From positions 2,336,001-2,400,000 of the forward strand of contig CAWGHO010000002.1 in the NCBI GenBank assembly GCA_963822445.1: a DNA stretch of 64,000 nucleotides, written 5' to 3'. Under the pieces are notes generated by a model that saw nothing but the letters and a program-made list of their open reading frames with translations, did not search any database and was not told the origin of the DNA. Both the position numbers and the translations under genes were made by a program. The stretch comes from an uncultured Acidobacteriota bacterium. GTDB taxonomy: Bacteria > Acidobacteriota > Thermoanaerobaculia > Gp7-AA8. Of the stretch, positions 21,681-44,117 are shown one piece after another. The number at the start of each line of letters is the position of its first letter. The first letter of the stretch is position 1.

Positions 21681-24201
<2,521 letters not shown>

Positions 24202-29203: not shown

Positions 29204-29857
29204 TTACGCATTGTTGGCCCGGACGTAGATCTCGACGCGGCGGTTCTGCTGGCGGCCGCTTGCGGTCGAGTTCGACGCTTTCGCGCTGCCTTCGCCGTAG
29301 CCGATCGAGTCGATGCGCGATCCGCGGACGCCCTGGTTTTGCAGGTAGCTGGCGACCGCGTCCGCACGACGCTCGGACAGGCGCTGGTTGTACGAGGTGG
29401 AGCCGGTCGAGTCCGTGTGTCCGCCGACCACGATGGTGGTGTCGCCGTACTTGTTGAACACGTCAGCCATCTCGCGCAGCTCGTCCTTCGAGGTTGCACG
29501 CAGCCCGGCCGAGTCGAAATCGAACAGGATCTCGTTGCGGACCGTCACGCGGAGCTCGTCGTCGTCGGTACGGGCCACGTCGATGCCTTCGATCTGCCGG
29601 AGCTCGCGCTCCTGCTTGTCCATCATGGCGCCGACGATCGCGCCGGTGGCCGCGCCGACCGCGCCGCCGATGACCGCACCGCGCTTGGCGTTCCCCGAGC
29701 CACGGTTGTTGTGGATGATCGCGCCGGCGATGGCACCGGCCACGCCGCCGATGACGGCGCCCTTGGCGGTCTTGTCGCGGCGGGTCGTGTTGTCGACCGC
29801 GAAGGCCATGGGGCTGGCGAGCAGGGCGATGAGCAGAGTGGCGATGAGCTTGTTCAT
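29204..29857 (-). CDS. OmpA-family protein with glycine zipper (tandem paralogue)
   Basis: Signal peptide ending AFA; MDKQERELRQIEG; GHTDSTG..NQRLSERRA..NRRVEI. Confidence 0.92.
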   Translation of the reverse strand: MNKLIATLLIALLASPMAFAVDNTTRRDKTAKGAVIGGVAGAIAGAIIHNNRGSGNAKRGAVIGGAVGAATGAIVGAMMDKQERELRQIEGIDVARTDDDELRVTVRNEILFDFDSAGLRATSKDELREMADVFNKYGDTTIVVGGHTDSTGSTSYNQRLSERRADAVASYLQNQGVRGSRIDSIGYGEGSAKASNSTASGRQQNRRVEIYVRANNA

Positions 29858-29889
29858 TGTCTTTCTCCTTGGTTCTGGCGGTCCTTAAT

Positions 29890-29905
29890 CGCAACGGAGC
29901 TGCCA
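29890..29905 (-). promoter_or_regulatory. Probable sigma-54 promoter for the OmpA gene
   Basis: Minus strand TGGCAG-CTCCG-TTGCG. Confidence 0.55.
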
Positions 29906-29958
29906 TGTACCAAATAACTATGGAAGAAATGGCGCTCAGCCGTTGTACCATCGGCGCC

Positions 29959-30990
29959 GTGGCGACCGAGACCTCGATGGCCGACGTGCTCCGTAACATG
30001 CTCAGTTACGGGGACTTGTCGTTCCGGGACTTCATGGAGGTGGCCCTCTACCACCCGCAGTTCGGGTACTACACGCGGGGTGTTCACCCTGCCGGAAAAG
30101 GGGGTGATTTCGTCACCGCCCCCTCGCTGAGCCCGGCATTTTCCTTTGCCATTGCCGGGCTCGTCCGCGAGTTTTCGAGCCGCTGCGAGGGCGAGTTGTG
30201 CTCTTTTGTGGACATCGGGGCAGGGGACGGCTCTCTCATTAATAGTGTGCAGCGCGTGGTGCAGGCCTCCGGCCTGCCTTTCCGCTTCTTCGCCTTGGAC
30301 CGCGCCCGGGGCACATCCCTGGAAGACGTTCCGACCGACGGCGTCCACTTCATTTTCTCCAACGAGCTCTACGACGCCTTTCCCTTTGCCCGGCTCGTGA
30401 ACCGCGGGGAGCACCTTCACGAACTGTGGGTGACAGAGCGCGAGGGCGGGTTGGACTGGGCGGAACGGGAAGCTCCGGCGCCCTACGAGGACTACTTCGC
30501 GAGCCACGGCGTCGAGCTGGCCGAGGGGCAGTTCGTCGATGTGTCTCTGGAGTGGGAGGCGTTTCATCGCGAGGTCGTGAACCGCTTCGAGCGCGCGCTC
30601 TTCGTCACCTTCGACTACGGACACGAAGCGGCGAAGCTCTTCAGCTCGCGGCTGCGGCGGTTCGGAACGGCGGCCGCGTACTCCGGGCACCGCGTGTCGC
30701 GCGACCTGCTCGCCAACCCGGGAGAACAGGACCTGACCGCGCACATCAACTTCTCCGATCTGAAGCGCGCGGAGGCGGAGACGCTCTACTTCGATCGGAT
30801 GAACAAGTTCCTGCTCTCGATCGGAATCGCCGAACACCCGCTTCTTCAGCCCGGAACGGGCGATTTTCAGGAGCGCGAAGATGCCCGCCGCCTCGTTCTA
30901 CCTGACGGCATTGGCGAGGACTTACGGGTCCTGGTGCAGGCCAGAGGGGTGCCGCTGGATGGGTGGTCGTTCCAGCGTCCGCTGTATTAG
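29959..30990 (+). CDS. MidA/NDUFAF7 family SAM-dependent methyltransferase
   Basis: FRDFMEVALYHPQFGYY, GDFVTAP, DIGAGDG, SNELYDAFP, DYG, PGEQDLTAHINF. Confidence 0.88.
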   Translation: MATETSMADVLRNMLSYGDLSFRDFMEVALYHPQFGYYTRGVHPAGKGGDFVTAPSLSPAFSFAIAGLVREFSSRCEGELCSFVDIGAGDGSLINSVQRVVQASGLPFRFFALDRARGTSLEDVPTDGVHFIFSNELYDAFPFARLVNRGEHLHELWVTEREGGLDWAEREAPAPYEDYFASHGVELAEGQFVDVSLEWEAFHREVVNRFERALFVTFDYGHEAAKLFSSRLRRFGTAAAYSGHRVSRDLLANPGEQDLTAHINFSDLKRAEAETLYFDRMNKFLLSIGIAEHPLLQPGTGDFQEREDARRLVLPDGIGEDLRVLVQARGVPLDGWSFQRPLY

Positions 30991-30991
30991 G

Positions 30992-31019
30992 TTGACTCTC
31001 CGCTTTTGCCGTTTAGAAT
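30992..31019 (+). promoter_or_regulatory. Sigma-70-type promoter of the nuo operon
   Basis: TTGACT-N16-TAGAAT upstream of nuoA. Confidence 0.6.
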
Positions 31020-31050: not shown

Positions 31051-31413
31051 ATGGCAAATTACTCGGTGCTGCTGGTAGCTGCGCTCATCGTGCTCTCGGT
31101 TCCGGTATTGACGCTTTTCGTCCTCCAGCCGCTGGTGCGCTCGGGCCGCCGGGGAGGCAAGGTGAAGCTCGAGCCGTACGAGTGCGGCATCGCCCCCACC
31201 TCCCTCGCTTTCGACCACAGGTTCTCGGTCCGCTACTTCCTGATCGCGGTCCTGTTCATCGTCTTCGACGTGGAGACGGTGTTCCTCTTCCCCTGGGCGA
31301 TCCGGTTCAAACAGCTCGGCCTGTTCGGCGCTGTGGAAATGGCAATCTTTCTTGCGATTCTCCTGATCGGTTACTTCTACGCCTGGAAGAGGAAGGTCCT
31401 TTCATGGGTCTGA
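31051..31413 (+). CDS. nuoA: Complex I subunit A
   Basis: [27 protein letters not shown]. Confidence 0.95.
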
Positions 31414-32424
31414 TCGAGGGCCGATTCGATTCGAACGTCCTGACGACGTCGGTCGACAAGATTTTCAACTGGGCCCGCAAGTCTTCCCTCTGGCCGATGC
31501 AGTTCGGTCTGGCCTGCTGCGCCATCGAGATGATGGCCGTCCTCGATCCCCGCCACGACATGGCCCGCTTCGGCGCCGAAGTCTTTCGCGCGACGCCGCG
31601 GCAGGCCGACCTGATGATCGTCTCCGGCACGGTCACCGAGAAAATGGCCCCCATCGTCCGCCGTCTCTGGGACCAGATGCCCGATCCGAAATGGGTCATC
31701 TCCATGGGCTCGTGCGCGACGTGCGGCGGTCCGTATGACACCTACGCCGTCACGCAGGGTGTCGATCGACTCGTTCCGGTCGACGTCTACATTCCCGGTT
31801 GTCCTCCTCGCCCCGAGGCGCTGATCTGGGGATTGATGGAGCTGCAGAAGAAGATCGAGAAGATGCACATCCTGCGGAAGGGCGGCGAGGCCTACGACTT
31901 CGCGCGCGCCGCGGTGCGCGACTCCCTGCGGCCCGAGCACGAAGGTCCCGCGCTCCGCGCCGAGCAGGCCGCGCAGCTCAAACAGGCTCCGATCTCCGGC
32001 GTGAAGCGCGCCCCGGTCGCTCCTGCGCCTCCGAAACCGAAGCCCGTTGCGGCCGTCACCGAGGCGCCGGTCGAAGGCGAAGTATCGCGGGCCGAGATCG
32101 AACAGGCTGCCGCTCCCGAGGTCGTTCCGGGCGAGGCGACGGACGGTGCATCGCCGGCCGTTCCCTTCCATCGCGATGACCTCACCCTCCCCGAGCGCAT
32201 GCAGATGGCCGCGGAGATCGGCGGCAAGTGGGAGACGAAGCTCTTCGCGGCGATGGCCCAGACCGACTGCGGCGCATGCGGCTGGGATTGCGAAGGCTAC
32301 GCGAACGCGCATTGCCACCGGTGAGACCGACGACATCTCCCTCTGCGTGCCGGGCGAATCCGAAACGCTCGACATGCTCAAACTTCTGATGGAGGAAGCG
32401 GGCAAGCCGTACTCCGGCGTGTAG
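31404..32424 (+). CDS. nuoB: Complex I subunit B with C-terminal linker and extra Fe-S domain (frameshift at ~32310)
   Basis: [32 protein letters not shown]; then Pro/Ala linker and DCGACGWDC...LCVPG. Confidence 0.92.
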
Positions 32425-32430
32425 CCTCGA

Positions 32431-33262
32431 ATGTCAGAGCAAGCCCCTCCGCCGCCGCCACCCGCGACCACGCCCCCTGTCGGGTCTGCGGTTCCTGCTG
32501 TTCCCGCGGCGCCGCCGGCGCGCTCGTTCGACGACATCAAGCGCGATCCGCTCGTGGCCGCATCAGTCTCGCGCGCCGGCGATGCGATCACCGGCGCGAA
32601 AGAGCAGGTCGGCGAGATCACCCTGTTCGTCGAGCGCGATCGCATCGTCGACGTCTGCCGCATCTTCAAGGACGACGGCTTCAACTACCTCGTCGATCTC
32701 GCCGGCGTCGACTACTCGAAGTATCCGAATCACACCGGGCCGCGCTTCAGCGTCGCCTACACGCTCTACTCGTTCCAGAAGAACAACCGCGTCCGCCTTC
32801 GGGCCTGGACGCCGGAGAACGAATCGATCCCCTCGGTGACGTCGGTCTGGAAAACGGCGAACTGGCACGAGCGCGAGACGTTCGACATGCTCGGCATCGA
32901 CTTTTCCGGCCACCCGAACCTCGAGCGCATCCTGATGTGGGAAGGCTTCAACGGCCATCCGCTGCGCAAGGACTTTCCGATCCGCGGCATCGACACCGGC
33001 GCACGGATTTACCCCGAGGTTTTCCCCGAGGGTGGGGGACCGAAGCCGGGATCGACGGGCAAGCCTGCCGCGGACGTGAACATCTTCAAAGGTGAGTGGA
33101 ACAAGTACGGAACCGCGCCCGCTCCGCAGATCGGCGGCGGCGCGAAGCCGGCTGCTGCCGCGAAACCCGCGCCGAAGCCTGTCGCCGCCGCCCCAGCAGC
33201 GCCCGCGCCGGCCCCGGCGGCTGCCGCAGCGGCCGCGTCTTCAGAGGATGAGGAGCCTGCCG

Positions 33263-33270
<8 letters not shown>
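32431..33270 (+). CDS. nuoC: Complex I subunit C
   Basis: [38 protein letters not shown]; Pro/Ala-rich termini. Confidence 0.93.
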
Positions 33271-34382
<1,112 letters not shown>

Positions 34383-34482: not shown

Positions 34483-35623
34483 ATGAACAAGACTCTCCTG
34501 ACTTACCTCATCTGGCCGGTGGTCAAGTTCATCATCGCCTTCCTCATCGTGCAGATCATCGTCGCGGCGATGAACTGGGTGGAGCGGCGTCTTCTCGGCC
34601 TGATGCAGGCGCGCCTCGGCCCGAATCGCGTTGGTCCGATGGGGTCTGCTGCAGATCGTCGCCGATCCGATCAAGTTCCTGCTCAAGGAAGACATCATTC
34701 CGTCGAAGGCCGAGAAGGTCGGGCACTTCCTCGGACCGGTGCTGCCGCTGCTGCCGGCGTTCATGGTCTTCTGCCTGATTCCGTACGGTCCGCCGCCGAC
34801 TTTCACCGTCACGCGCGTGAACGTTGGCCTCCTGCTGATCCTGGCCATGACCTCGACCGCGGTCTACGGGATCATCCTCGGCGGCTGGGCTTCGAACAAC
34901 AAATACTCGCTGATGGGCGGTCTCCGCTCCGCGGCGCAGATGGTCTCGTACGAAGTGCCGTTCGGGCTGTCGATCGTCGGCGTGTTGATGATCTGCGGCT
35001 CGCTCGATCTCGTGCAGATCGTGCGCTACCAGGAACTGAACGCCTGGAACTTCCTCACCCAGATCGTGGCCTGCTTCATCTTCTTCGTGTCGATGAACGC
35101 GGAGAACAATCGAACGCCGTTCGATTTGCCTGAAGCGGAATCGGAGCTCGTGGCCGGCTATCACACCGAGTATTCGGCGATGAAGTTCGCGTTCTTCATG
35201 CTCGGCGAGTACTCGATGATGATCGTGAACTCCTGCCTGATCGTGACGCTGTTCTTCGGCGGCTGGACGCTGGGCATGTTCGACATGGGGCTGACCACGG
35301 CGGTGCTCGCGAAGATGGGCTTCATCGGCGGACTGCTCGGCGCGGCGATCTTCTTCACGAAGGTCATGATGTTCATGCTCGTGTACGTCTGGTTCCGCGC
35401 GACCTTCCCCCGTTTCCGCTTCGACCAGCTCATGGACCTCGGATGGAAGTACATGATTCCCCTGGCCCTGGCGAACATCTTCGTCACCGGCATCTTCATC
35501 CTCATCGGTCAGGAGCGGACCATGGGCCTGTTCGGGCTGGTGGTGATCGGAGCGACGGCCTTCTTCCTGTTCAAGCCGAAACCGAAGCGCGCGACGACCG
35601 CGAAGGTGATCCATGCAAGTTGA
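34483..35623 (+). CDS. nuoH: Complex I subunit H (frameshift at ~34644)
   Basis: ERRLLGLMQARLGPNRVG, QMVSYE, NRTPFDLPEAESELVAG, PRFRFDQLM. Confidence 0.94.
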
Positions 35624-36143
35624 GTATCCGAAGAATCGCTGGTCGGAGAAGTTCCTCCTCCTGGACATCTTCGAGGGGCTGAAGACCACTCTGCGCGAGC
35701 TCTTCGTTCCGAAGGTCACCATCCGTTATCCGGAAGAGCGGATGGAGCCGGCCGATCGCTTCCGCGGCATGTTCCGTTTCTCCTTCGACCGCTGCATCGC
35801 CTGCAAGCTCTGCGCGGTGGCCTGCCCGATCGACATCATTTACATCGACGTGCACGACGAGACGATCGAAGAGGGCGGCAAGAAGAAAAAGATCAAAGTC
35901 CTCGACCGCTACGACATCGATGTGAAGCGCTGCATGTTCTGCGCGCTCTGCGAAGAAGCCTGCCCGACGAAGCCGAAGTCGATCTGGCTGACCACCAAGA
36001 CCTACGAGCTGGCCAGCTACGACCGCAACGACCTGTACTTCAACATGCAGGAGCTCGAGTACTGGGACGACAGGCCGAAGTACACCGGCCTGCCTGAGGA
36101 AGAGGGCCAGCCGAAAGTCGATGAGACCCGGCTGCTGACGTAA
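35613..36143 (+). CDS. nuoI: Complex I subunit I
   Basis: CIACKLCAVACP and CMFCALCEEACP. Confidence 0.94.
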   Translation: MQVEYPKNRWSEKFLLLDIFEGLKTTLRELFVPKVTIRYPEERMEPADRFRGMFRFSFDRCIACKLCAVACPIDIIYIDVHDETIEEGGKKKKIKVLDRYDIDVKRCMFCALCEEACPTKPKSIWLTTKTYELASYDRNDLYFNMQELEYWDDRPKYTGLPEEEGQPKVDETRLLT

Positions 36144-36146
36144 ATC

Positions 36147-36827
36147 ATGGACGAGCTGATTGCCAACATCCCGATGCTCGTGTTCCTGGTGATCGGGACA
36201 CTCGCCGTGGCTTCGTCGATTCTGGTCGTGGCCATGCGCAATCCCGTGCACTCGGCGCTGTTTCTCCTGCTCACCTTCCTCTGCGTGGCGGTGCTGTTCG
36301 TCATCAAGTCCGCGGAGTTCGTCGCGGCCGTGCAGGTGCTCGTCTACGCCGGCGGCGTCATGGTGCTGTTCCTGTTCGTGGTCATGCTGATCAACCACCG
36401 CGAGCTTCCGGAAGAGAAGGTGCTCTCCCGTTTCTGGACGGGCGGCCTGCTGGTCGGAATCGGCGTGTTCGCGCTCTTCTTCACCATCGTCCGCACCGGC
36501 GCGTACCACGACTCGATCGCCAATCCGGAGAAGAAGCTGAACACGGTGAAGGAGTCGTACATCACCGACCATCCGACGGATCCGAACAAGTCCGTGCGCC
36601 GCACGCGCGATCGCGAGAATCACAATGCCGAGGCGGTGGCCATGTCGCTGTATCGCGACTATCTCGTGCCGTTCGAGGTCGTGTCGCTATTCCTTCTTGT
36701 GGCCATGGTCGGCGCGATCGTGATCGGCAAGCGCGAGCTGCTGGCCGAGGAAGAAGAGACCACGCCGCAGTTCATCCTGGAGCGGGCCGAGGTCGAGAAG
36801 GAAGTGAAGGACGTCGTGAATGCCTGA
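36147..36827 (+). CDS. nuoJ: Complex I subunit J
   Basis: NPVHSAL, QVLVYAGGVMVLFLFVVML, PFEVVS. Confidence 0.94.
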   Translation: MDELIANIPMLVFLVIGTLAVASSILVVAMRNPVHSALFLLLTFLCVAVLFVIKSAEFVAAVQVLVYAGGVMVLFLFVVMLINHRELPEEKVLSRFWTGGLLVGIGVFALFFTIVRTGAYHDSIANPEKKLNTVKESYITDHPTDPNKSVRRTRDRENHNAEAVAMSLYRDYLVPFEVVSLFLLVAMVGAIVIGKRELLAEEEETTPQFILERAEVEKEVKDVVNA

Positions 36828-37122
36828 TACCGCCGCTTACCTGATGCTTTCCGGGACGATGTTCGCGGTCGGCCTCGTCGGCGTGATCGTCCGGCGGAAC
36901 ATGATCACCGTGCTGATGTGCATCGAGCTGATGCTCAACGCCGTCAACATCAACCTCATCGCATTCTCCCATCGCCTGGCCAATCTCGAAGGGCAGGTCT
37001 TCACGGTGTTCATCATCACCATCGCGGCCGGCGAGGCGGCGGTGGGGCTGGCGATCATCATTCAGTTGTACCGGCTGCGGGCCACGGTGAACATCGACGA
37101 AGTGAGGACGCTGCATGGGTAG
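36820..37122 (+). CDS. nuoK: Complex I subunit K
   Basis: RRNMITVLMCIELMLNA, AAGEAAVGLA. Confidence 0.95.
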   Translation: MPDTAAYLMLSGTMFAVGLVGVIVRRNMITVLMCIELMLNAVNINLIAFSHRLANLEGQVFTVFIITIAAGEAAVGLAIIIQLYRLRATVNIDEVRTLHG

Positions 37123-37132
37123 CCTTTATTCA

Positions 37133-37239
37133 ATCCTTGGCCGCGGAGCGGCCGAGGATCTACGGTGCACCTGCGCAGCTCGTGGCCGAGGGCGTCGCGA
37201 GTGTAACCAGAGATCCTCCGGCGCGTCGCGCCGAAGGAT
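37133..37239. repeat. REP-like inverted pair between nuoK and nuoL
   Basis: ATCCTTGGCCGCGGAGCGGCCGAGGATCT ... AGATCCTCCGGCGCGTCGCGCCGAAGGAT. Confidence 0.6.
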
Positions 37240-37249
37240 AAAGTGAACT

Positions 37250-39334
37250 ATGGCTAGCGCACTTCTACTAGTCGTCCTGCTGCCCGCGCTCGGTGCGCTG
37301 ATCAACGGCACGCGCGCGTTCGTGAATCCGCATACGCCGAAGAACAAGAGCATCACCAACCTCGTCGCGCTGGGAACCACCGGACTGTCCGCGCTGATCG
37401 CGGCCTACATCGTCTACGCCCACATCGGCCACCCGGAACAGTACTCGTACTACGAGTGGATCCCGTCGGGCATGGGCGCGGTCGGCAATCAGATCGCCAA
37501 CTTCTCCATCGACTTCGCGTTCCGCATCGACTCGCTCTCGTCGACGATGCTGTTGATCGTCACCTGGATCGGCTTCCTGATCCATGTCTACGCGACCGGC
37601 TACATGTCGCACGAGAAGGGCTACACGCGCTTCTTCACCTACCTCAACCTGTTCATGTTCATGATGCTGCTCCTCGTTCTCGGAGCGAACTACATCGTCA
37701 TGTTCGTGGGCTGGGAAGGGGTGGGCCTCTGCTCGTACCTGCTCATCGGTTTCTATTACGACAAGAACTTCGCCGCCGACGCGGGCAAGAAAGCGTTCAT
37801 CACCAATCGCATCGGCGACTTCGGCTTCATCCTCGGCATTTTCCTCATCTTCAACACCTTCGGCACTTCCGATTACGTGAAGGTGTTCACGCTGGCGAGC
37901 GAAGGCGGACATGCCTACGCGGGCGTCGCGACGGCGATCTGCCTGCTGCTGTTCATCGGCGCGTGCGGTAAGTCCGCGCAGGTGCCGCTGTATGTCTGGC
38001 TGCCCGACGCGATGGCCGGACCGACGCCGGTCTCCGCGCTGATCCATGCCGCGACGATGGTCACCGCCGGTGTGTACATGGTCGTGCGCTCGAACGTGCT
38101 GTTCCGGCTTTCTGAAACGGCTTCGCTGACCGTGGCCGTCGTCGGTGCGGTCACGGCGATCTTCGCGGCGTCGATTGGTCTCGCCCAGAACGACATCAAG
38201 AAAGTCCTCGCGTATTCGACCGTCTCGCAGCTCGGGTTCATGTTTATCGCCGCTGGCGTCGGTGCGTACAGCGCGGCGATCTTCCATGTCATGACCCACG
38301 CCTTCTTCAAGGCCTGCCTCTTCCTCGGCGCCGGCTCGGTCATTCACGGCTGCGGCGGCGAGCAGGACATGCGCAAGATGGGCGGCTTGCGGAAGTACAT
38401 GCCCCACACGCATCGCACGATGGCCATCGCCACGTATGCGATCGCCGGTCTGCCGTTCGCGGCGGGCTTCGTTTCGAAGGATGAGATTCTCGCGACGGCC
38501 TGGGGCAAACAGCCGGCCATCTGGGTCGTCGGTGCGATCGCGGCGGCGTTCACCGCCTTCTACATGTTCCGCCTCTACTTCATGACTTTCTGGGGTGAGT
38601 ACCGCGGCGGCCACGCGCCCGAGCATGGCCACGGCCACGACGCGCACGACGACCACGGTGGGCATCACGCGCACGATCCGCATGAATCGCCGGCGTCGAT
38701 GACCGGAGTGTTGTGGGTGCTGGCGATCCTCTCGATCATCGGCGGCTTCATTGGCTGGCCTGCGGCTCTCGGCGGATCGCATCCGACACCGTTCCAGAAC
38801 TGGCTTTCGCCGGTCCTGCCGCCGGTCGGCGATCACGCCTATCACTTCCATCACGAGCCCCGCCTCTGGCTGGAGTGGCTGCTGATGGGCATCTCCGTCG
38901 GCCTGGCACTCATCAGCGTTTTCCTCGCGTATCGGTTGTACGTGAAGCGGCCGCCGGTGCCGGACGTCCTCGAGCGCCGTCTCGGATTCGTCCACCGCGT
39001 GCTCGAGAACAAGTACTGGGTCGACGAGCTGTACAACGCGACGGCGATCCGCGCGACGATGCTGCTATCGACGGCGCTCTGGTGGTTCGACCGCTGGATC
39101 GTCGACGGCATCGTCAATTCCATCCGTCATCTGACCGTGTTCGGGTTCGGCCACGGCTCGAACATCTTCGACAAGTACGTCGTCGACGGCGCGGTGAACG
39201 GCGTGGGCTGGAGCGCGAAGAGCGGCTCCATGATGTTCCGGCGCGCACAGAGCGGTTTCGTGCAGAACTACGCGCTGATCATGGGCGGCGGCATCGTGTT
39301 GATTGCATTGGTTTATCTGTTCATGAAGCCGTGA
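37250..39334 (+). CDS. nuoL: Complex I subunit L
   Basis: GWEGVG, KSAQVPL..WLPDAMAGPTPVSALIHAATMV, THAFFKA. Confidence 0.96.
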   Translation: MASALLLVVLLPALGALINGTRAFVNPHTPKNKSITNLVALGTTGLSALIAAYIVYAHIGHPEQYSYYEWIPSGMGAVGNQIANFSIDFAFRIDSLSSTMLLIVTWIGFLIHVYATGYMSHEKGYTRFFTYLNLFMFMMLLLVLGANYIVMFVGWEGVGLCSYLLIGFYYDKNFAADAGKKAFITNRIGDFGFILGIFLIFNTFGTSDYVKVFTLASEGGHAYAGVATAICLLLFIGACGKSAQVPLYVWLPDAMAGPTPVSALIHAATMVTAGVYMVVRSNVLFRLSETASLTVAVVGAVTAIFAASIGLAQNDIKKVLAYSTVSQLGFMFIAAGVGAYSAAIFHVMTHAFFKACLFLGAGSVIHGCGGEQDMRKMGGLRKYMPHTHRTMAIATYAIAGLPFAAGFVSKDEILATAWGKQPAIWVVGAIAAAFTAFYMFRLYFMTFWGEYRGGHAPEHGHGHDAHDDHGGHHAHDPHESPASMTGVLWVLAILSIIGGFIGWPAALGGSHPTPFQNWLSPVLPPVGDHAYHFHHEPRLWLEWLLMGISVGLALISVFLAYRLYVKRPPVPDVLERRLGFVHRVLENKYWVDELYNATAIRATMLLSTALWWFDRWIVDGIVNSIRHLTVFGFGHGSNIFDKYVVDGAVNGVGWSAKSGSMMFRRAQSGFVQNYALIMGGGIVLIALVYLFMKP

Positions 39335-39349
39335 GCTGACGGGAGAGCA

Positions 39350-40960
39350 ATGGGCATTCTCAACATCATCACGTACATCCCCCTCGCGGGCGCGCTGTTC
39401 ATCCTGTTCGCGTTGAACCGCGGCAATGCGCGCGCGATCCGGATCGTGGCCACGGCCACGGTCGTGATCGACTTCCTGGTCTCGCTCTACCTCTGGCCGA
39501 ACTTCGACCGCGCCGCGTCGGGCAACGGGATCTGGCAGTTCCAGGAAAAGTACGAGTGGATTCCTTCCCTCGGCGTCAGCTACCACTTCGGCATCGACGG
39601 CATCGCTCTGCTGCTCGTCCTGATGACGACCTTCTTCGGCATCATCGCCGTGGTCTCGTCGTACAGCGCCATCCAGCATCGCGAGAAGGAGTACTACACG
39701 CTGCTGCTCATGCTGCAGACGGGCATGATCGGCACCTTCTGCGCGCTCGACTTCTTCCTCTTCTACGTCTTCTGGGAAATCATGCTCGTGCCGATGTACT
39801 TCATCATCGGCATCTGGGGCGGCGCGCGGAAGCTCTACGCGGCGATCAAGTTCTTCCTGTACACGCTGGCCGGCTCCGTGCTGATGCTGCTGGCCATCCT
39901 GGCGCTGTTCTTCTTCAACGACGGCGGCATCGAGTTCCTGAACATTCGAGGGTTGGGCAACGCGCCGACGTTCAGCGTGCTCCAGTTCCACAACATCGGC
40001 CATCTCATCCCGCCGACGCTGCAGTTCTGGATCTTCCTCGGCTTCTTCTTCGGCTTCGCCATCAAAGTGCCGATGTTCCCGTTCCACACCTGGCTGCCCG
40101 ACGCTCACGTCGAGGCGCCTACGGCCGGCTCGATCATCCTGGCGGCCGTGCTCCTGAAAATGGGCACGTATGGTTTCGTGCGGTTCGCACTGCCGATCCT
40201 GCCTGATGCGACGAAAGAGCTGCTCGTGCCGATCGTCGTGCTCTCACTGATCGGCATCATCTACGGCGCGCTCGTGTCCCTCGTGCAGAAGGACATGAAG
40301 AAGCTCGTCGCGTACTCGTCCGTTTCGCACCTCGGCTTCGTCATGCTGGGGATGTTCGCGCTCAACCCGATGGGCCTCAAGGGCTCAGTGCTGCAGATGA
40401 TCAACCACGGCATCTCCACCGGCGCGCTCTTCCTTCTGGTCGGCATCATCTACGAGCGCCGCCATACCCGGATGATCGCGGACTACGGCGGACTGGCCAA
40501 GCAGATGCCGATGTACGCGGCGCTGTTCCTGATCGCCGCGCTCTCGTCGATGGGATTGCCCGCGCTCAACGGCTTCATCGGTGAGTTCACGATCCTCCTC
40601 GGTGCCGCGAACTCCACGGCTTTCGGAACGATCGCGTACGCCGTCATCGCTGCCGTCGGCATCGTCCTCGGCGCGGCATACCTGCTCTGGCTCTACCAGC
40701 GCGTCTTCTGGGGACCGCTCGACAATCCCGCCAATGCCGCCGTGCCCGACGTCAATCGCCGGGAGTTGCTGCTGATGCTTTCGCTGGTCGGCCTGATGGT
40801 GTGGATCGGCGTGTATCCGAAGCCGCTCTTCGACGTGATCGAAGAGCCGGTGAACTACATCGTGCGCAAGGTCGATCCGACGTACTTCGACAGACAGCCG
40901 CTGACGTATCCGGATGCGCCGGCCGCTCCGGCTGCGCATCACGAGGTCGCGGTGAAATGA
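39350..40960 (+). CDS. nuoM: Complex I subunit M
   Basis: FWEIMLVPM, KVPMFPFHTWLPDAHVEAPT, AYSSVSH. Confidence 0.96.
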   Translation: MGILNIITYIPLAGALFILFALNRGNARAIRIVATATVVIDFLVSLYLWPNFDRAASGNGIWQFQEKYEWIPSLGVSYHFGIDGIALLLVLMTTFFGIIAVVSSYSAIQHREKEYYTLLLMLQTGMIGTFCALDFFLFYVFWEIMLVPMYFIIGIWGGARKLYAAIKFFLYTLAGSVLMLLAILALFFFNDGGIEFLNIRGLGNAPTFSVLQFHNIGHLIPPTLQFWIFLGFFFGFAIKVPMFPFHTWLPDAHVEAPTAGSIILAAVLLKMGTYGFVRFALPILPDATKELLVPIVVLSLIGIIYGALVSLVQKDMKKLVAYSSVSHLGFVMLGMFALNPMGLKGSVLQMINHGISTGALFLLVGIIYERRHTRMIADYGGLAKQMPMYAALFLIAALSSMGLPALNGFIGEFTILLGAANSTAFGTIAYAVIAAVGIVLGAAYLLWLYQRVFWGPLDNPANAAVPDVNRRELLLMLSLVGLMVWIGVYPKPLFDVIEEPVNYIVRKVDPTYFDRQPLTYPDAPAAPAAHHEVAVK

Positions 40961-42432
40961 CCTGGGCCGATACCATCTACCTCCTGCCGGAGATCATCAT
41001 CGCCATCGGCGCGTGCGCGCTGCTGATTGCGCCGGTGACCGGTTTCCGCAGCGAGGGCGGGGGCGCGAAGTGGTCGATGCTGGTGCTGCTGGCGATTACG
41101 GCAGGATCGGTGATCGCCTGTTCGGCCGCCGTGACGGACATCGACCAGACCCGCGGGTTCGCGGCGATGTTCGCGCTCGATTCCTTCTCGATCTTCTTCA
41201 AGCTGCTGTTCATCGTCACCATCGCCTGCATCGTGCTGCTCTCCGATGACTTCTTCAAAGGCACGCGGTACTCGCCCTGGGAGTACTACTCGCTGCTCGC
41301 CTTCGCGCTGTGCGGCATGCTCTTCATGGCTTCGGGCATCCACCTGGCGACGATCTACGTAGGCCTGGAGCTGATGTCGCTGTCGAGCTACATCCTGGCC
41401 GGGTACTTCAAGAACGAGCAGAAGAGCACCGAGGCGGCGATGAAGTATTTCGTGCTCGGGGCGGTGAGCTCGGCGATCTTGTTGTACGGAATCTCGCTGA
41501 TTTACGGAGTCACGGGCACGCTCAACCTCGTCGAGGTCACGCGGAGCATGTCCACGCTCGTGTCGAACGACGCGCTGATGTTCGGGATCATGATGCTGGC
41601 CGCGGGACTGTGCTTCAAGATCGGCGCGGCACCGTTCCACGTCTGGGTTCCCGATGTTTACGAAGGCTCACCGACGCCGATCACGGCGTTTCTTTCGACC
41701 GCTTCAAAGGCCGCGGCCTTCGCGATCTTCGCGCGGATCTTCTACACCGGCCTGCATCACTTTCGGCTCGACTGGCAGTACGTGCTGGCGACCATCGCCG
41801 CGCTGTCGATGATCATCGGCAACCTCGCCGCCATTACCCAGGACAACATCAAGCGGATGTTGGCTTACTCGTCGATCGGACATGCCGGCTACGTGCTCCT
41901 GGGCATCCTGGCCGTCACGGAGATGGGGTTGTACGGCGTGCTGGTGTACTCGGTGGTCTACGTCTTCGCCACGCTGGGCATCTGGGCGACGGTGATGATG
42001 ATGTCCAAGCCGGAGTACGCCGGCGAGTCGGTGAACGACTTCGAAGGACTGCACCGTCGTGCGCCGTGGGCCGCGTTCGGGATGATCGTGTTTCTGCTTT
42101 CGCTCGGCGGCATTCCGCCGACGGCCGGGTTCATCGGCAAGTACTTCCTGTTCTACGCGGCCGTGCAGTCGGGCTTCGGATGGCTGGCCATCATCGCCGT
42201 GCTGATGTCGGCGGTTTCGATGTTCTTCTACTTCCGCATCGTCATGGCCATGTACCTGCGCGACGGCAGCGGCCAGGCGGAGATCGTGAACAATCGCCCG
42301 CTGCAGCTCGTCGCGGCGATCTCGCTGGTGATCACGCTGGCGTTCGGGATTGCGCCGCGGTATCTGATCGATCAGGTCACCGTGTCGGGGCGGGGAGTGG
42401 CGAAACGCGCGGCCCTGCTGCATGGACGATAA
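40957..42432 (+). CDS. nuoN: Complex I subunit N
   Basis: EAAMKYF, FKIGAAPFHVWVPDVYEG, KRMLAYSSIGH, GFIGK; ATGA overlap with nuoM. Confidence 0.95.
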   Translation: MTWADTIYLLPEIIIAIGACALLIAPVTGFRSEGGGAKWSMLVLLAITAGSVIACSAAVTDIDQTRGFAAMFALDSFSIFFKLLFIVTIACIVLLSDDFFKGTRYSPWEYYSLLAFALCGMLFMASGIHLATIYVGLELMSLSSYILAGYFKNEQKSTEAAMKYFVLGAVSSAILLYGISLIYGVTGTLNLVEVTRSMSTLVSNDALMFGIMMLAAGLCFKIGAAPFHVWVPDVYEGSPTPITAFLSTASKAAAFAIFARIFYTGLHHFRLDWQYVLATIAALSMIIGNLAAITQDNIKRMLAYSSIGHAGYVLLGILAVTEMGLYGVLVYSVVYVFATLGIWATVMMMSKPEYAGESVNDFEGLHRRAPWAAFGMIVFLLSLGGIPPTAGFIGKYFLFYAAVQSGFGWLAIIAVLMSAVSMFFYFRIVMAMYLRDGSGQAEIVNNRPLQLVAAISLVITLAFGIAPRYLIDQVTVSGRGVAKRAALLHGR

Positions 42433-42634
42433 GCAACGACGGAACGCCAAGCAGTTACTCGAGGCCTCGTCCCTCGGCTTCATGTTCCCGATCGCGATCG
42501 GCCTCGGATTCGGGTGGGGCTACTGGATGGACAAGGTCTTCGGGACCCGTCCGTGGCTCACCGTCATCTTCACGATCTTCGGGCTCATAGCCGCGTTCGT
42601 GAACCTCTTCCGCATCGGCATGCGCGATGGCTGA
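42422..42634 (+). CDS. AtpZ/AtpI family small membrane protein
   Basis: GFGWGYWMDKVFGTRPWL; upstream of atpI/atpB. Confidence 0.85.
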   Translation: MDDKQRRNAKQLLEASSLGFMFPIAIGLGFGWGYWMDKVFGTRPWLTVIFTIFGLIAAFVNLFRIGMRDG

Positions 42635-43010
42635 TGAGACGGCTCAGGTCCTGCGGCGCATCCGCTGGCTGGCCGTTGCGGCGTATCTCGTTTTCGCTGT
42701 TTTTTGCTCGATTTACGGGGGTTTTCGGGCTTTTCTCGGGTTGACTTGCAGTGCTGCCGTCACTATGATCAGCTTCCTTTGGCTGGAGGAGGTGGCGACA
42801 ATTCTCCTGCAGCCGGAGGCGGCACACCAGCACGCTCGGAGGCTGACGTTGCGCTCCCTGGCGCGCTTCGCTCTCCTGGGTGTGGCGCTCACGGTCACGA
42901 TCATCATTGCTCGTTTCAATGCAGTCAGTGTGTTGCTGGGATTCTCAGTGATCGTCGCGGGAATCTGCGGCGAAGCTCTGTATTCGCTGTACCGCAGTTT
43001 TGCGAAGTGA
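42627..43010 (+). CDS. atpI: ATP synthase protein I
   Basis: Four hydrophobic helices, position before atpB. Confidence 0.75.
   Translation: MADETAQVLRRIRWLAVAAYLVFAVFCSIYGGFRAFLGLTCSAAVTMISFLWLEEVATILLQPEAAHQHARRLTLRSLARFALLGVALTVTIIIARFNAVSVLLGFSVIVAGICGEALYSLYRSFAK
42741..42769 (+). promoter_or_regulatory. Internal sigma-70-type promoter within atpI, upstream of atpB-atpE
   Basis: TTGACT-N17-TATGAT. Confidence 0.6.
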
Positions 43011-43038
43011 GAAGTAGCGAGAGGTAGTCCGGAACCCG

Positions 43039-43752
43039 ATGGCACAGGAACACGAACACTCAATTCTCTACGAGCCGTTCAATCACACGGTGAGCAAGGT
43101 CGTCGGCCGTGAAGTGCACGTGCCCGATCACGTGATCATGGCCCTGCTGGTGCTGCTCATCAGCTGCATCGTCTTTCCGTTGATGCGGCGGAAGATCAGC
43201 CGCGACAATCCCAGCGGCTTCCAGCACGTGCTCGAGATGGTGGTCGACGGACTGAAAGGCCTGCTCGAAGACGTCGTCGGCCACGGCGCGTCGAAGAAAT
43301 ACATCTACATCATCGGCGCCTTCGCGTCGTTCATCTTCATTTCGAACATCTTCGGGCTGTTCTTTTTCCTGCAGCCGCCGACCGGCAATCCCAACACGAC
43401 CTTTGCTCTCGGACTGACGGCGTTCCTGTACTACAACTTCGTCGGCATCAGGGAAGTGGGACTGCTGCATTACCTCAAGCATTTCGCCGGCCCGATGCCG
43501 CTGCTGGCGCCGCTGTTCATCCCCATCGAGATCATCGGCCACACGGCCCGCATCCTCTCGCTGGGCATGCGCTTGTTCGGAAACATCTTCGGTGAGCACA
43601 CCGCCACCGGGATCTTCATGGGCATGCTTCCGTTCGTCCTGCCCTGGCCGATGATGGGGCTGGGCATCTTCGGCGCGTTCCTGCAGACCTTCGTCTTCTG
43701 CATGATGACCATGGTCTACATCGGTGGCGCGGTCACGGCGGAAGAGCACTGA
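43039..43752 (+). CDS. atpB: ATP synthase F0 subunit a
   Basis: SLGMRLFGNI, FLQTFVF. Confidence 0.95.
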   Translation: MAQEHEHSILYEPFNHTVSKVVGREVHVPDHVIMALLVLLISCIVFPLMRRKISRDNPSGFQHVLEMVVDGLKGLLEDVVGHGASKKYIYIIGAFASFIFISNIFGLFFFLQPPTGNPNTTFALGLTAFLYYNFVGIREVGLLHYLKHFAGPMPLLAPLFIPIEIIGHTARILSLGMRLFGNIFGEHTATGIFMGMLPFVLPWPMMGLGIFGAFLQTFVFCMMTMVYIGGAVTAEEH

Positions 43753-43799
43753 TCAAGAGTTCAAAACATTCGCGACTATCGCGAAAGGAGGAGAATCGA

Positions 43800-44117
43800 G
43801 TGAACAAGAAACACATTCTGCTAGTCGTCATCCTGCTGCTGACGGCCTTCTCGGCGTTCGCACAGACTGACGCGGCTGCTGCGCCGGTCCGGACCGGAGT
43901 GCGTTGGGGTGCGATCGCTGCCGCGTTCGTTCTCGGCATCGCTGCTGCTGCCGGCGCGATGGGCCAGTCTCGCGCCATCGTCGCTGCCTGCGAAGGCATC
44001 GCCCGCAATCCGGGCGCGGCCGGTCCGATCCGTCTGGCGATGATCATCGGCCTCGCGCTGATCGAGTCGCTGGTCATCTACGCGCTGCTGATCGCGTACT
44101 TCGTCCACGAGTTCTAG
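43800..44117 (+). CDS. atpE: ATP synthase F0 subunit c with N-terminal signal-like leader
   Basis: GIARNPG, GLALIESLVIY; SD AGGAGG; GTG start. Confidence 0.95.
   Translation: MNKKHILLVVILLLTAFSAFAQTDAAAAPVRTGVRWGAIAAAFVLGIAAAAGAMGQSRAIVAACEGIARNPGAAGPIRLAMIIGLALIESLVIYALLIAYFVHEF

Follow-up and report, generated by a model that had tools for sequence, protein, structure and literature searches.

A NuoB subunit fused to a four-cysteine Fe-S domain in an eleven-gene complex I operon without nuoEFG, a candidate tethered electron carrier

Results

The window analysed here, a stretch of 64,000 nucleotides from the genome of an uncultured Acidobacteriota bacterium, contains the operon nuoA-B-C-D-H-I-J-K-L-M-N, whose eleven genes form one cluster with nuoH directly after nuoD (all features below are on the + strand). 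As an earlier note on this DNA had claimed, none of nuoE, nuoF and nuoG was found in the operon. A Methyltransf_28 gene (PF02636, 89.6 bits; 29857..30990) lies directly upstream of nuoA; we take this family to be that of the complex I assembly factor NDUFAF7/MidA. The ORF of nuoA (31051..31413; Pfam Oxidored_q4, 113 bits) opens at 31006, and the start that agrees with relatives (MANYSVLL; compared with genome G025) is 31051. It is followed by nuoB (31404-32424), placed between nuoA and nuoC as expected of NuoB in a nuo operon, and then by nuoC (32431..33270; PF00329, 151 bits), which has Pro/Ala-rich tails at both its N- and C-terminus. From the ORFs and their indels relative to genome G005, nuoD (33263..34327) passes through three frames one after another, owing to insertions of a single base near 33558, 33795-33841 and 34308, and by the same comparison nuoH (34483..35623) has one base too many near 34639 and is read in two frames. 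The remaining genes are nuoI (35613..36143; assigned from its ORF and profile evidence), which bears two 4-Cys motifs, and the ORFs of nuoJ, nuoK, nuoL, nuoM and nuoN (36147..42432). F0 ATP synthase genes are located downstream of the operon, and its flanking genes point to no electron donor.

The product of nuoB consists, in this order, of a NuoB core, a conserved extension, a variable linker and a four-cysteine domain. The core (residues 1-155; 31404..31868) matched Pfam Oxidored_q6 (PF01058) at residues 38-147 with 100.8 bits (cut-off 27) and NCBIfam TIGR01957 (nuoB_fam) with 241 bits (above the cut-off of 142.7), and it is further marked by columns invariant in 58 homologues, among them the cysteines C38, C39, C104, C107 and C133, which we take to be the ligands of cluster N2. 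The next 48 residues (156-203; 31869..32012) form a C-terminal extension of NuoB with a mean top-residue frequency of 0.94, and this extension is kept also in relatives without the Fe-S domain, where matches reach residues 184-202. It leads into a Pro/Ala/Glu-rich linker of about 47 residues (32013..32150), assigned from composition, conservation and pLDDT, which corresponds to window residues 204-249 and to residues 204-252 of homologue P0005 (65% P+A+E; conservation 0.71). Linker length was 46-56 residues in 50 of 58 homologues, these being the ones where both anchors were located, and the linker is predicted to be disordered (AlphaFold2 pLDDT of about 30 across residues 160-254 in the full-length NuoB model of P0005). 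The earlier note had described a Pro/Ala/Glu linker of ~90 residues; a variable linker does exist, but it is only about 47 residues long, residues 156-203 belonging to the conserved extension. Its claim that the frame continues from the NuoB core through the linker into an extra domain holds, as no stop was found in the linker.

The Fe-S domain (about 89 residues, cysteine pattern C-x2-C-x3-C-x17-C) is divided between two frames. Frame 1, open from 31404 through the linker into the domain, ends with HCHR and a TGA at 32322-32324, and encodes the first part of the domain (32151..32309) with a PFHRDD..ERM motif and three of the four cysteines (Cys1 at 32268-32270, Cys2 at 32277-32279 and Cys3 at 32289-32291). 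The second part (32311..32424), which is the same in intact homologues, lies in the +1 frame; it holds the fourth cysteine (Cys4, part of LCVPG, at 32344-32346) and a C-terminal helix, and its stop codon is at 32422-32424. Between the two parts, an extra base at 32310 (any of 32309-32311, GCG[C]ATT), apparent as a one-base gap against relatives, shifts the frame. When aligned to the NF004859 profile, frame-1 residues 217-303 cover positions 33-115, and positions 115-146 are taken up by the frame-2 piece (E 8e-5); the positions meet at 115, and therefore the two pieces abut exactly inside one domain.

Intact natural homologues of 337-345 aa read across the break site in one frame, in agreement with the earlier proposal that removal of one extra base at ~32310 restores a protein of ~339 aa. 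BLASTN placed a one-base gap at 32309-32311 in all four alignments listed and matched same-genus loci in 11 of 11 cases, and the extra base is also missing in genomes G005 and G003. Among metagenome contigs from relatives (four runs), each run gave one contig without the base at 32309 or 32310 (depth with deletion/total = 6.55/6.55, 6.45/23.7, 2.83/7.97 and 5.33/5.33). Within the genus, residues 1-302 were matched without a stop in 22 of 24 genomes, the NuoB core and the Fe-S domain were within one ORF at 13 of 13 loci, and the domain was matched in 29 of 31 other genomes; the same-genus sequences listed have a single open frame to profile position 95 or 96 of 96, while the source genome stops at 60.

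Since the relatives examined lack the base, and since nuoD and nuoH of the window carry similar one-base insertions (further uncompensated +1 insertions relative to G005), the extra base at 32310 most likely arose as an insertion error when noisy long reads were assembled, so that the apparent pseudogene would be an artefact. The source assembly consists of 3 contigs, yet its completeness is merely 94.7%. A frameshift that is genuine in the strain, ending NuoB after the third cysteine (HCHR-stop) and leaving a dead Fe-S domain on a working core as a recent lesion in an accessory domain, appears unlikely to us. The sequence as given does contain the additional base, with a TGA following eleven bases later, and the domain is dispensable in some relatives; against this, the frame-2 piece is unbroken and agrees with homologues at all of its 37 codons, the break occurs in none of the same-genus relatives listed, and the roughly five frame breaks in nuoB, nuoD and nuoH are all +1 insertions in otherwise well conserved genes, a pattern that fits technical error better than decay. 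Programmed +1 ribosomal frameshifting at 32310, giving both truncated and full-length NuoB, would be compatible with both frames being open near this position; we nevertheless regard it as hardly credible and rejected it because the relatives examined are without the extra base, so that the arrangement is unconserved, and comparable insertions occur in nuoD and nuoH.

Regarding the identity of the domain, three of three intact homologues scored 25.7-28.2 bits against PF04060 (Pfam FeS; gathering cut-off 23), in line with a likeness that had been proposed from the sequence alone. The truncated window ORF reached 13.2 bits and the frame-2 piece gave no score; the low value of the ORF arises because the domain is split over two frames. 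PF04060 and PF01058 were both precomputed on 112 of the 120 homologues listed. The nearer likeness suggested by the earlier note, to the N-terminus of sulfite-reductase-flavoprotein-like proteins, was recovered with NF004859, whose N-terminal region matched the truncated window ORF with an E of 1e-13 (50.8 bits); with the frame-2 piece added, the match covers profile positions 33-146 only. Among solved sequences, the best match was RnfB (8ahx_B, E 0.012) with the four cysteines aligned. The C-x2-C-x3-C-x17-C cysteines, already recognised in the window, were conserved without exception, both across 34 of 34 aligned sequences and across 52 of 52 domain rows. A structure model of the domain only (pLDDT 85.7) gave RnfB 9eri_B as the top VIA-align match (rmsd 2.6 A, 57 residues, 25% identity) at a Z of 5.0, with the next row at Z 3.8. 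The match is weak, a Z of 5.0 being too low to rule out a mere shared arrangement of helices; Foldseek searches of the PDB with this model returned nothing at E <= 0.001. When P0005 was modelled at full length by AlphaFold2 with 58 close homologues, confidence was low outside the domain (mean pLDDT 50) and the NuoB core came out poorly; a fold search with this model returned unrelated rows only (Z <= 4.9). The most likely ligand of the four invariant cysteines is a single [4Fe-4S] cluster, by homology with the N-terminal domain of RnfB. Two other assignments of the whole protein were considered and rejected: as a PRK06214 sulfite reductase subunit alpha it scores 50.8 bits against a cut-off of 432 and has no FAD_binding_1, and with RnfB it has the FeS domain alone in common, its C-terminal part being without Fer4 domains and its operon being nuo.

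The fusion is widespread and not confined to the source genome. In the family sample, 105 of 120 other genomes have the domain, as do 36 of 40 genera; in genus g251 it is in 0 of 4 genomes. In-frame fusions were on NuoB in G078 and G335, on both NuoB and NuoC in G121, G247 and G370, and solely on NuoC in G108, and tandem arrays of the domain occurred in G094 and G025. Copies per operon range from 0 to at least 5. In nuoC of the window the domain is absent, and same-genus NuoC ORFs gave no Fe-S HMM match. Library representatives carry the domain on NuoB, NuoC and NuoI-like proteins. In Verrucomicrobiota, NuoI and the domain were in one ORF at 14 of 14 loci, in operons of the order nuoA-B-C-D-I-H-J-K-L-M-M-N that gave no NuoE/F/G match, and in the Chloroflexota used as a control the domain was at 0 of 66 NuoI loci. 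The conserved upstream neighbours of the Verrucomicrobiota operons were common to close relatives alone, and therefore yielded no donor candidate. The earlier note had proposed to score the co-occurrence of the fusion with nuoEFG absence; nuoEFG was missing from every domain-carrying operon inspected.

The domain is also found apart from NuoB, and NuoB apart from the domain. Four of five checked family genomes without the domain keep a NuoB that is 80-85% identical. In 11 class-level relatives NuoB carries no such fusion, and the distance from the best nuoB match to the best nuoI match is 2.7-3.1 kb, too short to accommodate nuoEFG. Sister families have a standalone domain protein of about 225 aa. 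Of 106 scanned representatives, 45 carry the domain on the N-terminal side of FAD_binding_1, which may or may not be accompanied by NAD_binding_1, and in P0186 it lies between a siroheme sulfite/nitrite reductase module and a FAD/NAD module.

Outside the window, the source genome has a second, scattered nuo set with nuoE-nuoF (contig C3, about 1.02 Mb) and nuoG (C3, about 0.99 Mb); the sole Complex1_51K and NuoG-type matches of the genome lie on a contig other than that of the window. NuoE, F and G are thus encoded by the genome, alongside a paralogous nuo set, and could in principle also serve the window enzyme. FAD_binding_1 (PF00667) had no match in the source genome, which is 94.7% complete and frame-shifted.

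Discussion

The analysis shows how the gene is built, what its parts are homologous to, that the domain keeps its four cysteines, that it has been fused repeatedly to peripheral-arm subunits, and that nuoEFG is missing from the operons concerned; beyond this, we infer that the domain binds a cluster and docks on NuoI, which way the electrons flow and where they come from, as follows. The native product of the gene would be a single protein of about 339 residues. In it the NuoB core (cluster N2) is followed by the 48-residue extension, then by a flexible Pro/Ala/Glu linker of ~47 residues, and finally by a domain of about 89 residues that is compact and helical. The protein would be part of a nuoABCDHIJKLMN enzyme that is complete in itself and does without NuoEFG, the NADH-oxidising module. 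The tethered domain would take one electron from a cytoplasmic donor, swing back and hand it to the distal cluster of NuoI, the presumed acceptor subunit, from which the electron would go on to N2 and then to quinone. The carrier reading derives from the position of the domain elsewhere, where it stands beside NAD(P)H/FAD reductase modules at the place of an electron shuttle. On balance we consider it rather probable that the domain is a swinging [4Fe-4S] electron carrier feeding the 11-subunit complex I, on a gene that is natively one protein with an artefactual break. For the broader proposal we see about an even chance: in one Thermoanaerobaculia family, and convergently in Verrucomicrobiota, the NADH module may be functionally replaced by one to several such domains on NuoB, NuoC or NuoI, which would take up electrons one at a time from cytoplasmic donors and deliver them to the clusters of NuoI. 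The new electron-input architecture with a tethered carrier that the earlier note had envisaged gains strong comparative backing from the recurrence of the same domain on NuoB, NuoC or NuoI in operons without nuoEFG in two phyla, and from its place elsewhere between NAD(P)H/FAD modules and their acceptors; on the other hand, the genome does encode NuoE, F and G, and four family members keep NuoB without the domain. A complex prediction that combined NuoI (from an alignment of 29 rows) with three 4Fe-4S clusters and the Fe-S domain, run without controls, reached 0.23 and 0.21 where the mark is 0.32, which argues neither for nor against docking.

Complex I is reversible, and the direction of flow is not readable from sequence, so the tethered domain might instead be an electron outlet or a side branch, leading to a low-potential acceptor (for example by reverse flow from quinol) or linking the complex to another enzyme. 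The F0 ATP synthase genes after the operon and the separate NuoEFG-containing set, which is there for NADH oxidation, would suit such an outlet; nonetheless, in the reductase fusions the domain directly adjoins the NAD(P)H/FAD module, which is usually a donor, and the operons that carry the domain are those without an input module, and we hold this alternative to be unlikely. A slightly smaller chance is given to the domain being no redox carrier at all and helping instead with docking or assembly (for example by recruiting a reductase or another partner, or Fe-S delivery factors), acting as a redox or iron sensor, or binding zinc. A copy number varying between 0 and at least 5 per operon would be needless for a strictly stoichiometric wire, and the standalone form in sister families is compatible with such a role, but two things argue against it: the domain is homologous to the part of RnfB that binds a cluster and has kept the four ligand cysteines invariant, and its place between redox modules in P0186 and PRK06214-type proteins is that of an electron-transfer domain.

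That a recognisable electron-transfer domain is joined to three separate subunits of the peripheral arm, in two phyla and always in operons without nuoEFG, points to a functional partnership and renders the question of the donor testable. If the carrier reading is true, these fusions would represent an undescribed class of complex I electron-input architecture and offer a handle on what feeds the 11-subunit enzyme, whose direct donor in bacteria is stated as long-unresolved in the parts of PMC11238625 available to us. The portions of PMC12361115 that we consulted treat complex I fusions of the CD and BCD types only, and in the literature searched, supplementary files and an ISME J paper on two-NuoM complexes aside, no published description of NuoB, NuoC or NuoI fused to this domain was found. 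The public annotation 'NADH-quinone oxidoreductase subunit B/C/I' conceals this architectural variant in hundreds of soil and sediment genomes.

Among known systems, the N-terminal [4Fe-4S] domain of RnfB (PF04060; 8ahx, 9eri) belongs to the same small domain family and its four cysteines align with those of the NuoB domain, although the match is weak at the sequence level. RnfB itself has a membrane anchor and polyferredoxin domains and is part of the Rnf complex, whereas the NuoB domain stands alone at the end of a long linker and has an additional conserved N-terminal helix pair with a P(F/W)H..ER(M/L) motif. The spacing of the NuoB domain is C-x2-C-x3-C-x17-C, while copies in tandem arrays have x4. 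The closest sequence relative of the whole domain, taken at ~110 residues, is the PRK06214-type 'sulfite reductase subunit alpha' (NF004859; Fe-S domain, FAD_binding_1 and NAD_binding_1), a profile that also scored 84-150 bits on the NuoC and NuoI fusions; both domains are linked to a redox partner, which is a flavin reductase there and complex I here.

The N-terminal [4Fe-4S] domain of AcsC/CfsA, the large subunit of the corrinoid iron-sulfur protein, presumably belongs to the same Pfam family. It is a mobile domain, tethered by a flexible linker, that ferries electrons; the enzyme is a different one, and its cluster domain is N-terminal, unlike the C-terminal domain of NuoB. In the Foldseek comparison, AcsC/CfsA (9fzy_F) ranked 5 with a TM of 0.41 and an rmsd of 2.3 A over 52 columns, at an E of 4.6, which is not significant. 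The lipoyl domains of the E2 subunits of 2-oxoacid dehydrogenases are swinging arms on Ala/Pro-rich linkers with a variable number of tandem copies. They offer an analogy only, in that a small carrier is held on an Ala/Pro-rich linker in species-variable copies (here 1 to at least 5); their fold and cofactor are unrelated to those of the Fe-S domain, whose own swinging is putative.

Complex I-like enzymes made of 11 subunits, namely cyanobacterial NDH-1 and the bacterial nuoABCDHIJKLMN type, have the same core gene set without nuoEFG and face the same question of the donor, which is raised likewise in the parts of PMC11238625 and PMC3144371 available to us. These enzymes use free ferredoxin together with extra docking subunits, or another partner, whereas in the operons described here the cluster domain is attached covalently to NuoB, NuoC or NuoI.

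Reading frame of nuoB

A standard NuoB is encoded on the + strand from position 31404 (Pfam Oxidored_q6, 100.8 bits for residues 38-147; NCBIfam nuoB_fam, 241 bits), and its frame runs for 306 codons without a stop, ending in [24 protein letters not shown], HCHR and a TGA stop codon (32322-32324). Translation in the +1 frame starting at 32311 gives [37 protein letters not shown], with a stop at 32422-32424. On NF004859 (PRK06214, 'sulfite reductase subunit alpha'), the first piece covered profile positions 33-115 (E 1e-13) and the second-frame piece positions 115-146 (E 8e-5); since the pieces join at profile position 115, the two frames meet exactly within one domain. The earlier note had described a NuoB with a tethered Fe-S domain at 31404-32424, split by one extra base, and its description, coordinates and one-base correction were all right.

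Homologues were searched with residues 160-306 of the window NuoB, and 921 of the 1720 candidate proteins had E ≤ 0.001. Among the matches listed, 112 of 120 homologues carried both PF04060 and PF01058, and they were mostly 336-346 aa long and named NuoB from Thermoanaerobaculia or Acidobacteriota MAGs; the Fe-S domain lay in a single frame in all eight sequences inspected. Within the genus (the counts take in G002, and the conclusions were unchanged without it), residues 1-302 were matched without a stop in 22 of 24 genomes, the remaining two being one that matched residues 1-198 and one, 71% complete, that had the paralogue only. NuoB core and Fe-S domain were found within one ORF at all 13 same-genus loci, and BLASTN matched all 11 loci, with a single gap at 32309-32310 in all four alignments displayed and likewise in the relatives G005 and G003. 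A wider family scan gave an Fe-S domain match in 29 of 31 other same-genus genomes; each same-genus row among the matches listed was one open frame reaching position 95 or 96 of the 96-position profile, the window genome alone ending at position 60.

Compared with G005, nuoD (33263-34327) contained uncompensated one-base insertions near 33558, 33795-33841 and 34308, and nuoH (34483-35623) contained one near 34639, so that nuoD lies in three frames and nuoH in two. The frame breaks of nuoB, nuoD and nuoH were all insertions in otherwise well-conserved genes, in an assembly of 3 contigs that is 94.7% complete. In each of four metagenome runs, one contig lacked the extra base, these contigs being those of relatives and not of the window strain (the best public run contains 0.21 of the sampled words). 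The break in nuoB is very probably noise of the long-read assembly.

Insertion errors appeared to be spread throughout the assembly, judging from the nuoD and nuoH breaks. Elsewhere in the window, an ORF at 21684-22769 (- strand) matched the H+-pyrophosphatase family at C-terminal positions 377-644 of 645 only; the missing part is probably upstream in another frame, likely by another assembly frameshift.

Anatomy and identity of the Fe-S domain

In 58 intact homologues (residue numbering of one of them, P0005), the NuoB core (residues 1-155, top-residue frequency 0.98) was followed by a conserved extension (156-203, 0.94), present too in relatives without the Fe-S domain, by a linker with 65% Pro+Ala+Glu (204-252, 0.71) and by the Fe-S domain (253-341, 0.90). 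The linker was 46-56 residues long in 50 of the 58 sequences (those with both anchors found). AlphaFold2 pLDDT was 72-91 in the Fe-S domain but about 30 across residues 160-254, and a domain-only model from a 34-row alignment had four helices (pLDDT 85.7, pTM 0.78). Invariant residues of this alignment, in first-row numbering, included A-M-x-Q-x-D-C-x-x-C-G, C57, Y60, C75, G78 and T82. The four Cys were present in all 52 extracted domain copies, spaced C-x2-C-x3-C-x17-C in 46 and with x4 in 6, all from tandem arrays.

The likeness to Pfam FeS (PF04060) proposed earlier was borne out by three of three intact homologues (25.7-28.2 bits, cut-off 23), the window's own split pieces staying under the cut-off at 13.2 bits; the proposed kinship with the N-terminus of sulfite-reductase flavoproteins agrees with the NF004859 match. 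The closest solved sequence relative was the RnfB subunit in the Azotobacter Rnf complex (8ahx_B, E 0.012), with which the four Cys align, and the top structural match of the domain model was the RnfB subunit in that of Acetobacterium (9eri_B, Z 5.0, rmsd 2.6 Å over 57 residues, 25% identity; second row Z 3.8). Foldseek with the domain model gave no significant match, the corrinoid Fe-S protein 9fzy_F ranking fifth (E 4.6, not significant). The predicted membership in the RnfB/CFeSP cluster-domain family has good support from sequence and weak support from fold.

Occurrence in other proteins

A profile built from eight domain copies matched 1103 representatives of a 50%-identity library at E ≤ 0.001 and 373 at ≤ 1e-10, and a Pfam scan covered 106 of the best 150. 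In 45 of the 106 the domain was N-terminal to FAD_binding_1, with or without NAD_binding_1, which is the PRK06214 type (for instance, P0145 with 723 bits on NF004859). NuoB carried the domain in one scanned representative (P0124) and NuoC in two (P0131 and P0193; NuoC_fam 144 and 131 bits, cut-off 122), and the cores of two NuoI-like fusions (P0137 and P0151) best matched NuoI models at 71-88 bits, not reaching the cut-off of 113. One protein was a triple tandem of the domain (P0123), one (P0186, 984 aa) had the order siroheme NIR_SIR module, domain and FAD/NAD module, and many were about 250 aa long with an N-terminal part lacking a Pfam assignment. In P0186, a metagenome protein, the domain occupies residues 509-592, between the siroheme sulfite/nitrite reductase module and the FAD/NAD(P)H domains.

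A search with the NuoI fusion P0276 yielded 14 Verrucomicrobiota MAG loci, and NuoI and the domain lay in one ORF at 14 of 14, a count uninformative on frequency because the query contained the domain; the same scan found the domain in none of 66 Chloroflexota NuoI loci as control. The gene order was nuoA-B-C-D-I-H-J-K-L-M-M-N where the contig extends far enough, and NuoE, F and G gave no match at E ≤ 1e-8 within the 14 loci. In these operons nuoI precedes nuoH and there are two nuoM-like genes; their NuoI fusions share with PRK06214-type proteins a P-x-x-EQRAWL motif missing from the Thermoanaerobaculia fusions.

The fusion proteins are already in public databases under plain subunit names, and full-text literature searches turned up no account of the fusion.

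Distribution in Thermoanaerobaculia

Across 401 genomes sampled evenly over the phylum, strong matches were confined to the window's family (all 7 other genera sampled there) and two sister families of the class (4/4 and 3/3); the sister families have the domain at the C-terminal end of a ~225-aa standalone protein. The rest gave only weak, core-only, RnfB-like matches. The standalone protein (L020 3923-4609, L021 3649-4320, L019 4407-5657 on the - strand) may represent an untethered form of the carrier. Cysteines occur in its first ~125 residues, which matched no Pfam family, and in two genomes the protein is encoded next to a gene resembling by eye an MBL-fold hydrolase.

The same fusion was sought in related genomes, as the earlier note had suggested, and the domain was found at E ≤ 1e-15 in 105 of 120 other family genomes (36 of 40 genera; 76 of 84 high-quality genomes, window genome counted), and genomes with it had one, two or as many as six matches. 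ORF-level checks showed in-frame fusion on NuoB only in the window genus, G078 and G335, on both NuoB and NuoC in G121, G247 and G370, and on NuoC only in G108. In G094 at least three copies stood in tandem within an ORF that lies upstream of a NuoC fusion, and G025, from a neighbouring family, had four tandem copies after NuoC with a frame change at the junction. The G025 array (contig C1, L018 3732-6076) consists of near-identical linker and Fe-S repeats of about 121 aa each, two being identical, and may reflect collapse or mis-assembly of a repeat, or else form a gene of its own. The C-terminus of the window NuoC (33080-33270) is a long Ala/Pro-rich tail ([41 protein letters not shown]) that lacks an Fe-S domain. 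Sister genera combine NuoC with a linker and the Fe-S domain, and the tail is possibly what is left of a lost domain.

In a tree of the 52 domain copies, indicative at best because the alignment has only 97 columns, a supported branch (96/98) separated the NuoB-attached copies from the NuoC-attached copies of those genomes, and Verrucomicrobiota NuoI-attached copies clustered with reductase-type domains (98/95).

Four of five checked family genomes without the domain keep an 80-85% identical NuoB, and NuoB had no fused domain in 11 class-level relatives, whose best nuoB and nuoI matches are separated by 2.7-3.1 kb, leaving no space for nuoEFG. Since it is missing from some relatives that keep NuoB, the domain is accessory to the 11-subunit enzyme, which does not require it. 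The conclusions were unchanged without G030 (included in the standalone-form set, 401-genome sample, genome match counts and class-level spacing), G486 and G536 (family sample) or G469 (check of domain-lacking genomes).

NADH module and gene neighbourhood

In the window operon nuoD is followed directly by nuoH, and the proposal of a complex I lacking its NADH module holds for this operon but not for the genome, because a second complete nuo set is present over three scattered loci: nuoB-nuoCD-nuoI (C1:316043-319148; L016 10043-13148), nuoA-nuoE-nuoF (C3:1019523-1021825; L017) and nuoG-H-J-K-L-M-N (C3:983121-991730). The domain was not found on any paralogue of this set.

After the nuoB-CD-I cluster on C1 come genes for rubrerythrin and for a class-V aminotransferase (cysteine desulfurase-like). 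The gene immediately preceding nuoA, in the same orientation, is of the Methyltransf_28 type (PF02636; 29857-30990, +), the family of NDUFAF7/MidA, the arginine methyltransferase for the NuoD homologue in complex I assembly. After nuoN, at 42368-44114 (+), an ATPase_gene1 (AtpZ/AtpI-like) ORF is followed by ATP synthase subunits a and c; the remaining ATP synthase genes were not seen within the window.

Proposed role of the Fe-S domain

A cluster-type domain sits on a long, flexible and compositionally biased tether; its fusion recurs independently on three subunits which between them make up the top of the Q-module; the fused domain is confined to operons without the input module; and the same domain type adjoins NAD(P)H/FAD modules elsewhere. 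From these four observations we infer a [4Fe-4S] carrier role. The domain would bind a [4Fe-4S] cluster, take an electron from a cytoplasmic donor and hand it to the distal NuoI cluster, from which it would follow the known chain to N2 and quinone. Counted against this reading are that no donor was found, with no FAD_binding_1 module in the window genome and no hint from neighbouring genes, and that the domain is absent from some relatives keeping NuoB. An electron outlet or branch at the same domain seems improbable to us, and a non-redox role slightly more so; a tethered carrier for electron input has an even or somewhat better than even chance of being correct.

In the reductase fusions the domain takes the place that the flavodoxin-like shuttle has in CysJ-type enzymes, which is that of an electron-transfer carrier. 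That the domain varies in copy number and sits on Ala/Pro-rich linkers is reminiscent of swinging-arm carrier domains, as an analogy only.
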